Shown here piece by piece: positions 35,752 to 37,748 of a DNA stretch of 64,000 nt. A model generated the notes under the pieces. That model saw only the letters and a program-made list of their open reading frames with translations. It searched no databases and was not told the origin of the DNA. The stretch covers positions 42,456-106,455 of the forward strand of contig CP066687.1 in assembly GCA_016432405.1 (NCBI GenBank). The letters are read 5' to 3'. How positions within the stretch are numbered: position 1 is the stretch's first letter; each line of letters opens with the position of its first letter. Source of the DNA: Candidatus Giovannonibacteria bacterium. Lineage in GTDB: Bacteria; Patescibacteriota; Minisyncoccia; UBA11713; 2-01-FULL-45-33. A program made the position numbers and the translations under genes.

Positions 35752-36993
35752 CTATGGCTTTAATTTCAAGCTCCACAAATCGCCGGAGGATTTGTCGCGG
35801 AAGAGGAGATAAGAATCGTCGGCCAGGATTTTTGGAGAAATTACGTCTAGCGGCGTCTGGATAAAAGACGATACCTGACCGGTTGCCGTGTTAATCAGGA
35901 CAAAATCGTCTTGAAATGAAATTTTGCCTTTCCACCAATCGTCCGGGAGCCCGCCAACACCCGGCGCTGGAGAGTGGGGCGCGGCGCAGTAGGCGGCGTT
36001 TTTAAGTGTCCGCGAAAACGCGCACTTTTCGGCGATTGTTTTGACTCCCAAGTCCTTGGTTTCTCCGGTTTTTGCGTCAACAAATCTTAAATCAAAGAAA
36101 TTTCCATCGGATGTCACTCGGGAATAAAGCGCGCCCGAGCCGTCCAAATTCCAGACCGCGTCCAGACCCAGACCCTCGGCAATTTTCGCGAATTCGCCCG
36201 TGTTTATGTTGAGCGAGTAAAGAAATCCGCGCGCAGCGTAGGAGGACTTTGTTTTAAGGGCGATGAGATTTTGCGCCGGCCAGCTGATTTCAAAATTTGG
36301 GATGTCGTTGTCAAAAATTTTTCTTTGATTTCCGAAATCAGAATTTGCGATAAAAATATTTTGGCTTTCCCCCACATCATTTATAAACACAACCCGTTTT
36401 GAGTCCGGCGAAAAAGCGACGTCGGAAACGCCGTCCGGCAGGAAATTCGTCCGCGGAGTGGAGGTTGAGTAGTCCGTCAAAAGTTTTTTGATTTGTCCGC
36501 CCAAGTTGTAAAAAATCACTGCCCGCCTCGCGTCCGAAGCCCACAGAACGCGAAGAATTTGGGGGACGGTGAAATTGGAAGTTCTTTTTTCCTCATCTGT
36601 CCCGTCCGCCTTTCTTTCAAAGAGGTGCCCCAGCGCCTCGGCGACATTTTTGTGATAGCGGACGGAGGTTGTTCCGACAAGAGCAATAGATGAAACGTTC
36701 TCCTGACTTAGCCGAACCAATGTGCCCACCGGGAGATTTTTCGCGGATTCGGGGGTTAGCGGCAATTCGCCGCCTCCGCCCGGGAAAACACTCGGTGTTT
36801 GCCGCCCATCAACACCGAGTGTTGAGGAGGGTGGTCCGCTCGGCGGCGCCGATGACGGGAAGATTCCGAAAAATCCTCCCCCGCTGGTTCCCTGCGTTCC
36901 GCTTTTTGACCCGAAATAAAACAAAACTCCGATGATAATTACCACACTAACCCCAGCAATTATTATATTTCTTTTGGTTAATAAATTTTCCAT
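35752..36993 (-). CDS. Membrane-anchored beta-propeller-like (TolB/WD40-like) protein
   Basis: N-terminal TM helix, then a Gly/Pro/Ser linker, then repeated DG/SPD and Y..L strands typical of propellers. The first 13 codons are duplicated at 37710-37744. Confidence 0.5.
   Translation of the reverse strand: MENLLTKRNIIIAGVSVVIIIGVLFYFGSKSGTQGTSGGGFFGIFPSSAPPSGPPSSTLGVDGRQTPSVFPGGGGELPLTPESAKNLPVGTLVRLSQENVSSIALVGTTSVRYHKNVAEALGHLFERKADGTDEEKRTSNFTVPQILRVLWASDARRAVIFYNLGGQIKKLLTDYSTSTPRTNFLPDGVSDVAFSPDSKRVVFINDVGESQNIFIANSDFGNQRKIFDNDIPNFEISWPAQNLIALKTKSSYAARGFLYSLNINTGEFAKIAEGLGLDAVWNLDGSGALYSRVTSDGNFFDLRFVDAKTGETKDLGVKTIAEKCAFSRTLKNAAYCAAPHSPAPGVGGLPDDWWKGKISFQDDFVLINTATGQVSSFIQTPLDVISPKILADDSYLLFRDKSSGDLWSLKLKP
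36959..36993. repeat. 35-bp segment (5' end of the propeller gene), copy A of a flanking duplication
   Basis: AATTATTATATTTCTTTTGGTTAATAAATTTTCCAT matches 37710-37744 at 32 of 35 positions. Confidence 0.7.
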
Positions 36994-37008
36994 GCCGCGA
37001 TGATACTA

Positions 37009-37581
37009 TTATATCTTTTTAATTAATAACTTTTCCAGCATTTCGGCCACGCCAATCCTTAAAGCCCACATTTTCAGATATTCTATATCAAGTTCGGAGC
37101 CAGAAATTTTTAAGATGGATTCAACGTCTTCCAGCTGACGGCTTGATCCTGATTCTTTAAACCATTGCAATTTTATTAAAATGAGATCTTCTGGCGAGGA
37201 AAAATACACTTTTTGGCCAAGAATCTCTTTGGCTATTTTTCTTCGTAGCCGGGAAACGTCAAACGCGTTTCTTTTTAACATCCAAAAGTCAACTTTTACG
37301 CCGGTTTCCCCGTCTACGAAATTAAATTCGCCTTCTTGTAAAATTGCTTTTTCGATGGATTGCTTGTCAATATATCCAGCTCCGCTTAATTCTCGCAGGG
37401 CCTTTTCCAGCTTGGAGATATCGCTTGTTTTTAATTCCACAACTATGTCTATATCGGCGGTAAATCTTGGTCTGCCCCAAACCAAGACCGCAATTCCGCC
37501 AGTAATGATATAGGGAATATTAAGGCGCTCAAGAATTTGCGCGACATTAACCAGAAGTCGTCTCGGATCTATTTGTTCCAT
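37009..37581 (-). CDS. Nucleotidyltransferase (Pol-beta superfamily, AbiEii/MNT-like)
   Basis: Minimal NTase motif GGIAVLVWGRPRFTADIDIVVE, i.e. hG[GS]...D.D. It lies between the two copies of a duplicated gene start. Confidence 0.6.
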   Translation of the reverse strand: MEQIDPRRLLVNVAQILERLNIPYIITGGIAVLVWGRPRFTADIDIVVELKTSDISKLEKALRELSGAGYIDKQSIEKAILQEGEFNFVDGETGVKVDFWMLKRNAFDVSRLRRKIAKEILGQKVYFSSPEDLILIKLQWFKESGSSRQLEDVESILKISGSELDIEYLKMWALRIGVAEMLEKLLIKKI

Positions 37582-37709
37582 GGCTTATTTTATTGCCCAC
37601 TAAATCTTTAGCCAATCTCCAAAACGCGGAGCCCAATTCCACTTTTTTGTCCGCGGACATTTTTCTGAAAATGTCATCTTGCCGATCTTGGGCAGATTTC
37701 TTCTCCGCG

Positions 37710-37744
37710 ATTATTATATTTCTTTTGGTTAAATAGTTTTCCAT
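37710..37744. repeat. 35-bp segment, copy B of the flanking duplication
   Basis: Starts a 65-aa ORF, MENYLTKRNIIIA..., that shares its first 13 residues with the propeller protein, MENLLTKRNIIIA. Confidence 0.7.
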
Positions 37745-37748
37745 AAAA

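Follow-up and report, generated by a model that had tools for sequence, protein, structure and literature searches.

The described system that appears, by functional analogy, to stand closest to the gene pair examined here is MenAT1 (Rv0078B-Rv0078A) of Mycobacterium tuberculosis, in which MenT1 is a tRNA-modifying toxin with the active-site residues T39, D41, K137 and D152, and MenA1, a helical protein of 68 amino acids (aa) encoded upstream, neutralizes it (PMC10435456). The pair in question consists of a 65-aa open reading frame (ORF) and a 190-aa nucleotidyltransferase (NTase) gene, and it lies between two copies of the start of a propeller-like gene, within an operon that resembles a type IV secretion system (T4SS), in a Candidatus Giovannonibacteria bacterium (contig CP066687.1, positions 42,456 to 106,455; this whole 64-kb stretch of DNA is called the window, and coordinates without a locus label count from its first letter). 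The movement of two-gene toxin-antitoxin (TA) or defence modules which carry neither transposases nor integrases is poorly understood, and a tiny cassette that diverged genomes carry at one precise site, and whose site in relatives is empty or otherwise filled, allows a concrete and testable model to be formulated.

In the AbiE system (AbiEi-AbiEii), the partner AbiEi is a winged helix-turn-helix protein of the COG5340 type. Campbell-type insertion-duplication and homology-facilitated illegitimate recombination belong to naturally transformable bacteria and are known mainly from laboratory settings. The tycheposon islands of Prochlorococcus, which are flanked by attachment (att) sites, arise by the tandem accretion of integrative elements at those sites (bioRxiv 10.1101/2020.12.28.424599). 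In the present work it is proposed that the window contains a MenAT1-like module which was gained by recombination at an att-like repeat, at a TA hotspot inside the T4SS operon; this is a reading that we hold with middling confidence, evenly poised between right and wrong.

A chimeric gene pair enclosed by a direct repeat

The genes of the hotspot region are all on the minus strand. The downstream repeat copy, c2 (36956-36993, minus strand; c denotes a copy of the propeller start), comprises the first 38 nucleotides (nt) of the propeller-like gene, that is, the ATG and 12.7 codons (MENLLTKRNIIIA), and the upstream copy, c1 (37707-37744, minus strand), which encodes MENYLTKRNIIIA, starts 4 nt past the stop codon of the pilin-like gene. 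According to a repeat search, the two copies form a direct repeat with 34 of 38 positions identical and a start-to-start distance of 751 nt, and they enclose an insert of 713 bp. When the repeat pattern was sought in the window with at most three mismatches, c1 and c2 were the two matches found (none was expected), and none of 100 dinucleotide shuffles gave any match. The propeller gene genuinely starts with c2, MENLLTKRNIIIAG being the conserved N-terminus of the family (16 homologues), and the variant MENY... encoded by c1 is found as the N-terminus of some propeller orthologues.

A mis-assembly of strains at a short repeat, or a fortuitous match between AT-rich sequences, was considered as an origin of the duplication. 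The sequence is indeed short and AT-rich, and two independent Logan contigs of this genome stop inside c1, at 37730 and 37723 (7 nt apart). These ends, and that of a third Logan contig at 38370, the start of the low-GC pilin domain, may reflect low-complexity sequence, coverage or strain heterogeneity. The arrangement is nevertheless not an assembly artefact, because at least six contigs, assembled independently and from different sequencing runs, show it unchanged, with no mismatches across the cassette (15 contigs are on record); the same architecture also occurs in independent assemblies of other lineages, and the shuffles argue against a chance match, so that an origin of the repeat in artefact or chance is extremely improbable.

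A candidate for a decayed third copy within the pilin ORF (FSNRKKMIVANG compared with LTKRNIIIAG, ~38360-38400) has a DNA identity of about 14/36 and was treated as chance. Inspection of the 38-nt repeat by eye found short AT-rich symmetry alone (TTATTA..TAATAA), and a dif-like dyad was unconvincing.

The 65-aa ORF (37547-37744, minus strand), which encodes the putative antitoxin, takes its start codon from c1: its codons 1-13 are propeller-derived, and its codons 14-65 encode the complete conserved core (AQDxQDDIFRKMSADKKxELGSxLWxLAKDLVGxKIxYG) of a family of 54-85-aa proteins with 16 homologues. The native N-termini of this family are short, Lys-rich and of the MKK.. type, and in every context examined the small gene lies upstream of, and overlaps, an NTase gene of the type found here. 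Just three members have a propeller-coded N-terminus, namely those of the window (MENYLTKRNIIIA-EKKSAQ..), of L008 (MENLLTKRDAIVA-KEKTAQ..) and of L062 (MENILTKRNI-KKTRSAQ..), where L008 and similar labels denote related loci, and the in-frame fusion of the start has been retained in all three lineages despite indels. The core is considered to be under purifying selection because the substitutions that separate the window from L008 are mostly synonymous (the proportion of non-synonymous differences, pN, is 0.07 and the proportion of synonymous differences, pS, is 0.37). By these alignments, the ORF is not degenerate and represents an intact partner gene whose own start was swapped in frame for the 13 first codons of the propeller gene. 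The capture of a host start codon by the first gene of a cassette would in this case be an example of expression by start-swapping: c1 would supply the start and 13 codons, and the module would be translated from the operon transcript at the place where the propeller normally starts. The structural model of the 65-aa protein, which is of moderate confidence only (mean predicted local distance difference test score, pLDDT, 71), contains helices at residues 4-14, 18-28 and 31-52, and the protein has no match in Pfam, NCBIfam or PADLOC, and neither a sequence nor a fold match in the PDB.

The NTase (37009-37581, minus strand), a putative toxin of the Pol-beta superfamily with a MenT1/AbiEii-like minimal fold, is encoded by an ORF which overlaps the 65-aa ORF by 35 nt. 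It scores above the Pfam gathering thresholds of AbiEii (PF08843, 28.2 bits against a cut-off of 22.5), DUF6036 (24.8 against 23.6) and DUF2204 (23.3 against 20.3); PADLOC gave weak AbiEii matches only, and NCBIfam gave no hit, MntA included. The catalytic hG[GS]...DxD motif is present at the N-terminus (TGGIAVLVWGRPRFTADIDIVV), the residues G28, G29, T41, D43, D45, K137 and D152 are invariant among 29 homologues, and the AlphaFold model (pLDDT 90.8) has MenT1/MenAT1 as its top fold matches in the PDB (8an5 and 8an4, template modelling score 0.67-0.68, E 1.8e-7), with ANT(2'')-Ia and TM1012 ranking next. By hidden Markov model, motif and fold, the NTase belongs to the DUF1814/AbiEii-MenT clade.

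The first-pass annotation, which was made from the sequence alone, had described much of this layout. Its 35-bp duplication (32 of 35 positions identical, 751 apart) was confirmed and extends to 38 nt, its TA-type NTase between the copies is upheld by the three Pfam scores, and the ORF that it described as opened by the upstream copy and overlapping the NTase start does so by 35 nt; it had also placed the upstream copy beside the pilin stop codon, where the propeller gene would once have begun, and the gap is 4 nt, with the same junction unoccupied in L010. Of the two affiliations that it put forward for the NTase, AbiEii was recovered and MNT, in the form of the MntA family, was not. Its suggestion that the 65-aa ORF may be a degenerate partner gene was right as to the partner and wrong as to the degeneracy, and the search for antitoxin families that it suggested for this ORF drew a blank in Pfam, NCBIfam and PADLOC.

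The likeness to MenAT1 has three components. An NTase of ~190 aa and of the minimal DUF1814/AbiEii type has MenT1 as its best fold match; T41, D43, K137 and D152 parallel T39, D41, K137 and D152 of MenT1 when matched by residue numbering and family alignment; and a protein of ~65 aa, helical by prediction and without a DNA-binding domain, is encoded directly upstream of the NTase. The pair differs from MenAT1 in that the identity of the NTase to MenT1 is only 17-19%, and in that the partner ORF overlaps the NTase gene by 35 nt and has a borrowed N-terminus. With AbiE the pair shares an NTase that clears the AbiEii gathering score, but AbiEii proteins and models are longer (290-310 positions in the PADLOC profiles, 238 in Pfam), and the partner here, at 65 aa and without a hit in Pfam, NCBIfam or PADLOC, is not a COG5340-type AbiEi. 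The type VII TA system MntA-HepT differs again, since the cassette in the window holds no HEPN gene and its NTase has no MntA hit in NCBIfam, although the corresponding site is taken by true MntA-HepT pairs in L004 and L062. By analogy, the pair is most likely a TA or abortive-infection module that looks MenAT1-like in its action, in which the NTase would block translation via nucleotidylation of tRNA 3' ends and the small protein would neutralize it by binding; that it belongs to MenAT1 proper is not established.

Empty, occupied and multiply occupied sites

The survey of relatives covered 61 loci that encode propeller relatives, which were obtained from a metagenome scan and contig look-ups (a scan of genome contigs with a single protein gave 2 loci). 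Empty sites, in which the pilin stop codon lies no more than 47 nt from the propeller ATG, are represented by about 21 distinct arrangements, including L003/L005, L002 and L032. L003/L005 is the closest relative of the window (82% aa identity in the propeller, ~86% nt identity in the region), and its site is empty. In L010, the same HExxH-type pilin end as in the window (..WLEQNGFVKKMR, followed by the stop codon) is succeeded by 4 nt and the propeller ATG, which is the left junction in its unoccupied form. L015 was rejected as a further empty site when the end of a 237-aa gene was found upstream of its propeller gene.

Occupied sites are represented by ten distinct arrangements in the clade, each with at least one additional copy of the propeller start of its own genome; these copies begin at the ATG or ~10 nt before it and end at about +26 to +41. 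The interval between pilin and propeller in the window and in L008/L009 reads c-small-NTase-c, and the same chimeric cassette is present at the same site in L062-L065, where the interval reads c-small-NTase-c-MntA-HepT-237aa-c. Other cassettes fill the interval in L004/L006/L007 (c-MntA-HepT-(237 remnant)-c), L013 (c-NYN-like-c-MNT-(HEPN remnant)-c), L018/L019 (MazF-like-c-MNT-HEPN-c), L021 (c-MNT-HEPN-c), L022 (c-MazF-like-MNT-MNT-HEPN-c), L035 (c-MazF-like-c-MazF-like-MNT-HEPN-c) and L001 (a degenerate c, a MazF-like remnant and 237aa-c). The MntA and HepT labels were confirmed by NCBIfam in L004, and the MazF-like and NYN-like labels are a reading of the sequences only. A variant in the third copy of L064 which matches its second copy was considered as a case of gene conversion and rejected, two changes not being significant at a background divergence of 5%.

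Comparison of these loci indicates that the site is a hotspot at which TA-type cassettes of several kinds recur, with copies of the repeat at the cassette boundaries. The search for an empty site in relatives that the first-pass annotation suggested found one in the ~21 arrangements, the closest relative L003 among them; its picture of a single event gives way to a recurrent hotspot. Its core reading of an insertion is supported, but the event is recent in a relative sense only and is not private to this genome, since the cassette is also found in L008/L009 and L062-L065. Relatives with the same arrangement and no empty site had been named as the finding that would speak against an insertion; the same arrangement does exist in relatives, and so do empty sites.

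The cassette of small gene and NTase is also present at other chromosomal places. In L069 it follows secA, and three copies of the SecA 3' end (3927-3999, 4749-4842 and 5824-5910), two of which also include the ATG of the next gene, bound this cassette together with another, unrelated one; an 18-nt indel which is absent from the resident SecA end is common to copies 2 and 3. In L075, the cassette and a second cassette are bounded by three copies (2879-2930, 3720-3769 and 4487-4541) of the final ~47 nt of a 577-aa surface-type gene, and copies 2 and 3 are 98% alike and 83-87% identical to the resident copy. Both patterns fit repeat copies that are carried by the cassettes, and on these alignments the architecture in which n cassettes are accompanied by n+1 repeats of a host-gene end is not confined to the propeller gene. 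That such arrays are found at several gene ends hints at a general way in which TA cassettes could move in genomes of the candidate phyla radiation (CPR).

Other repeated sequences were observed in the related loci. An element of ~75 nt, in which a GC hairpin precedes a TTGTCA...TATAAAAT-like stretch, recurs downstream of the MazF-like cassettes of the hotspot in L035 (850-924 and 1423-1497), and a remnant of it lies in L001 (~5150-5285) between two copies of the start of the 237-aa gene; Rfam returned nothing in L001, L035 or L013, this recurrent hairpin/promoter-like element included. Further direct repeats of 41-120 nt, spaced by 0.7-1 kb, occur outside the hotspot in L009 (6505-6545 with 7283-7323, and 6724-6779 with 7438-7493), in L021 (2029-2148 with 2827-2937) and in L026 (5242-5319 with 6270-6347), the last of which look like duplicated starts of pilin genes.

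Probable horizontal spread and the recombination that may underlie it

Synonymous divergence differs between the cassette and the genes around it. When the window is compared with L008/L062, pS is 0.63-0.76 (saturated) in VirB4, p327, the pilin N-domain and the propeller, and 0.37-0.48 in the NTase and the core of the small ORF (corresponding to a synonymous divergence, dS, of about 0.5-0.8). The flanking genes of the window and L003 have a pS of 0.33-0.40, and L003 is without the cassette, though the divergence of its flanks from the window is about equal to that between the cassette copies. The GC content of the cassette is ~0.40, compared with 0.44-0.51 in the host genomes. Because the pS of the cassette is below that of the flanks, the site in L003 is empty and the GC content of the cassette is low, the comparison favours horizontal spread, among Giovannonibacteria, of a cassette that was already chimeric over vertical descent accompanied by many losses.

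The cassette in the window probably arrived as part of a larger segment. In a blastn alignment of the window with L003, homology (86.6%) stops at 38578 and restarts (84%) at 36994, and the intervening block of 1,584 bp (36994-38577), which has no counterpart in L003, comprises the C-terminal region of the pilin gene, c1 and the cassette. The GC content of the block is 0.35-0.43 against ~0.50 outside, with the low-GC sequence mostly at ~36900-38400. c1 and the last ~95 nt of the pilin gene are 86-88% identical to the matching stretch of L010 and L013, far above the identity of the surroundings; the counterpart in L010 is a real pilin-propeller junction, and that in L013 is a pilin end with c1. 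The left junction of the window is donor-like, in that its c1 (MENY.., ..ATCGCGG) and pilin 3' end resemble (86%) the native junction of L010, which is of the HExxH-pilin lineage. The block was probably imported as a unit, with the C-terminal domain of the pilin being replaced along with it, and the founding insertion would therefore predate this lineage.

This block structure also fits, as regards the last historical step, an explanation which invokes no dedicated mechanism: a few illegitimate or homology-facilitated events during the uptake of foreign DNA would have produced the duplications, the interval would then have been exchanged between strains through homologous recombination in its conserved flanks, and the repeats would be passive scars that persist where they provide a start codon. 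A double crossover in such flanks would give just the difference observed between the window and L003, a single low-GC block with the conserved pilin N-domain on one side and the start of the propeller on the other; the pilin C-terminus is hypervariable too, the fused start is under selection for in-frame translation, and the decayed remnants (of the 237-aa, HEPN and MazF-like genes) show ordinary deletion and decay in the interval. Passive scars leave unexplained, however, why the same ~38 nt, with similar end points, should appear in the three-copy arrays of L062, L013 and L035, and why the n+1 architecture should be found at two unrelated gene ends in other CPR genomes, and repeated illegitimate events should scatter the break points; this explanation is thus doubtful, with a real but minority chance of being correct.

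Recombination at an att-like joint, the reading preferred here, is favoured because n cassettes come with n+1 repeats, the end points are consistent, the copies in L069 and L075 that are not resident resemble each other and not the resident gene end, and c1 of the window is donor-like. The opening ~38 nt of the propeller gene (together, in some genomes, with ~10 nt upstream) would act as an attachment-like recombination joint, at which a cassette enters by recombination between its own copy of the repeat and the resident copy; such Campbell-type integration would turn n cassettes into n+1 copies. Arrays would be built by tandem accretion, and recombination between copies would remove cassettes and restore an intact gene start. 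In this genome, the cassette would have arrived within the 1.58-kb low-GC block that also replaced the C-terminal domain of the pilin. A circular or tandem junction would run from the 3' end of the NTase gene (..TAATAGTATCATCGCGGC) through one copy of the repeat to GAGAAGAAATCTGCC. The sequence comparisons establish that the ~38-nt segment has been repeatedly involved in the gain of cassettes; the enzyme would be encoded outside the cassette and could be a trans-acting site-specific recombinase, or the host homologous recombination machinery acting on DNA from relatives.

Several observations weigh against this reading. No recombinase was found in or beside any cassette (the cassette in the window contains the 65-aa ORF and the NTase gene only, and the gene lists of the related loci were consulted), and the only tyrosine recombinase seen in the window (62403-63275) is 25 kb away, with no link to the site found. 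No excised circle or hybrid junction is on record in the assembled sequences, to which the analysis was confined. In L062, HepT and the 237-aa gene are not separated by a copy of the propeller start, and no flanking repeat was detectable around the pair of small gene and NTase in L066, L071, L072 and L073, because of which the repeat is not regarded as a universal feature of the cassette. The low pS of the cassette could be exaggerated by AT-biased codon constraint. The comparison of the small ORF with MenA1, made with a model of moderate confidence, found no sequence or fold similarity, and homology between the two is not established. Finally, the repeat copies within a genome have common lineage-specific variants (AACC in the window, AAGAAGA in L004), which would not be expected from a simple fixed-point crossover with a foreign att site and which fit either target-site duplication or later gene conversion.

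Target-site duplication would dispense with a repeat on the incoming DNA: machinery independent of the cassette would make staggered cuts ~38-50 bp apart at the start of the propeller gene (elsewhere, at other gene ends), and gap repair would duplicate the recipient sequence around a cassette that is itself repeat-free. Such a process predicts n cassettes with n+1 copies equally well, and it would place AAGAAGA in both copies of L004, as observed. The c1 of L008 differs from the c2 of the same locus at 4 of 36 positions and from the c1 of the window at 11 of 36 in direct comparison, as copies made from a resident sequence should, and the junction between c1 and the cassette is identical in the window and L008. 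It is opposed by the absence at the cassette ends of a transposase, terminal inverted repeats and other transposon hallmarks, by a repeat length that varies with the target (38-50, ~47 and ~75-90 nt), and by the non-resident copies in L069 and L075, which are closer to each other than to the resident end, the 18-nt indel included. Known target-site duplications made by transposases are far shorter than 38-90 bp. We judge this alternative to be distinctly unlikely.

The locus can be compared on this basis with described routes of cassette movement. It resembles att-flanked elements in that a segment of the host gene is directly repeated at either side of the insert, the host gene is intact and relatives have an empty site, and departs from them in that the cassette encodes no integrase or recombinase; it is not an insertion sequence or transposon, there being no transposase, no inverted repeats at the ends of the insert and a duplication of 38 nt. 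In the tycheposon islands, as in cis-mobilizable elements that lack an integrase, a host-gene copy of ~40 nt likewise flanks the cargo units on both sides, and successive integrations build arrays with remnants, partial repeats and empty sites in relatives, but here protein genes, and not tRNA genes, are targeted, at their 5' end (at their 3' end elsewhere), and the units are 0.7-1.6 kb long, none of them with an integrase. Modules that depend on Xer recombinases (the integrative mobile elements exploiting Xer, or IMEX, and the pdif modules of Acinetobacter plasmids) are also small, lack an integrase, often encode TA systems and use short sites and a host recombinase, and an Xer-like tyrosine recombinase is present in the window; the dif-like dyad is nonetheless unconvincing by eye, the repeats are all direct, and the locus is adjacent to the origin rather than to the terminus. 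Campbell-type insertion-duplication and homology-facilitated illegitimate recombination share the duplication of a short homologous segment on both sides of the insert, and a natural, recurrent hotspot with consistent end points falls outside their description.

Integron arrays, including TA-rich superintegrons, offer a further parallel, since they too consist of promoterless cassettes with one or two genes, many of them TA systems, which are separated by repeats of a recombination site and placed in an upstream expression context. The repeats here, however, are copies of an adjacent host gene end and not attC, no intI or attI is adjacent, the operon contains no integrase, and the array lies inside that operon. 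CPR bacteria may possess an undescribed, integron-like movement of small and mostly TA cassettes, without a recombinase encoded in the cassette, in which each cassette carries or generates a copy of ~40-90 nt of a host gene end, so that n cassettes come with n+1 repeats at the 5' or 3' ends of the T4SS propeller, SecA and surface-protein genes; as a general proposal this is tentative, and we consider it improbable in this form. If it were true, the window would contain one unit of a general mechanism of TA-module mobility.

The operon and other features of the window

The propeller-like gene (413 aa, 35752-36993, minus strand), whose product is membrane-anchored and whose 5' end is the target of the insertion, is the conserved last gene of the T4SS-like operon. 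It has 89 homologues, mostly in Giovannonibacteria and other Patescibacteria, some of which have PD40/beta-propeller hits in Pfam, and its TolB/Dpp5 hits in NCBIfam are weak. The minus-strand order is VirB4-like gene (40369-42183), 150-aa gene, 327-aa gene, pilin-like gene, 65-aa ORF, NTase, propeller-like gene, two small genes and jag/yidC, and the synteny VirB4-...-pilin-propeller beside jag/yidC/rnpA/dnaA is conserved. The T4SS-like operon of Patescibacteria is adjacent to the origin and is reported to be essential in one cultivated Saccharibacterium (PMC12102498). The Patescibacteria T4SS survey, which covers the operon and its origin-proximal position, mentions no such hotspot, and of the papers that surfaced in literature searches, namely this survey and the MenT papers, none describes it.

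The pilin-like gene (395 aa, 37749-38936, minus strand) has a conserved T4SS_pilin N-domain (aa 1-~125; Pfam 1.2e-7) and a C-domain with an HExxH metallopeptidase-like motif (aa ~179-395, GC content 0.37 at 37749-38402; the Peptidase_Mx1 match is weak). Among the relatives this C-domain is common only to L010/L011 and L013, with 44-48% identity, and the other pilins, 129-450 aa in total, have Cys-rich or Gln/Thr-rich tails, so that, by these sequences, the C-terminus of the pilin is hypervariable as well. The origin-proximal T4SS-like operon of these Patescibacteria would thus contain both a hypervariable TA island and a domain-swapping pilin gene, and the two bear on the diversification of surface and defence in streamlined symbionts.

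The 3' end of the cassette (36994-37037, minus strand) consists of the NTase stop and a 15-nt spacer (TAATAGTATCATCGCGGC) ahead of the propeller ATG. It contains a promoter-like match, TGGAAA-18-TATAAT (10/12), whose -10 box overlaps the NTase stop codon; this is a match to the consensus alone and not a demonstration of function. The spacer, with TATAAT 15 nt ahead of the propeller ATG, is kept in L062 upstream of its second repeat copy.

On the propeller gene's opposite side, the region between it and jag (34735-35680, minus strand) contains a 103-aa membrane-like ORF and a gene for a 200-aa helix-turn-helix protein with sigma-70 region 4. Neither gene is present there in L001 or L002, and in L003 the interval includes an additional 159-aa ORF, so that on comparison of these loci the end of the propeller gene that faces jag is a second variable spot.

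The tyrosine recombinase at 62403-63275 (plus strand) is a protein of 290 aa, an Xer-like size, with a Phage_integrase match of E 1e-39. Near-identical palindromic, GC-rich hairpins of 33 nt are found at 60739-60771 and 62872-62904, the latter, by its coordinates, inside the recombinase ORF. The window also contains a diversity-generating retroelement (4110-6108, minus strand), with an RVT_1 reverse transcriptase gene (4110-5111, E 7e-25) and a pair of 129-nt repeats (5514-5642 and 5980-6108) that are 87% identical. Of the 17 mismatches, 16 set a T of the first copy (plus strand; A on the minus strand) against any base in the second copy, and because these 16 fall at an A of the first copy, the pair bears the signature of a template repeat and a variable repeat.

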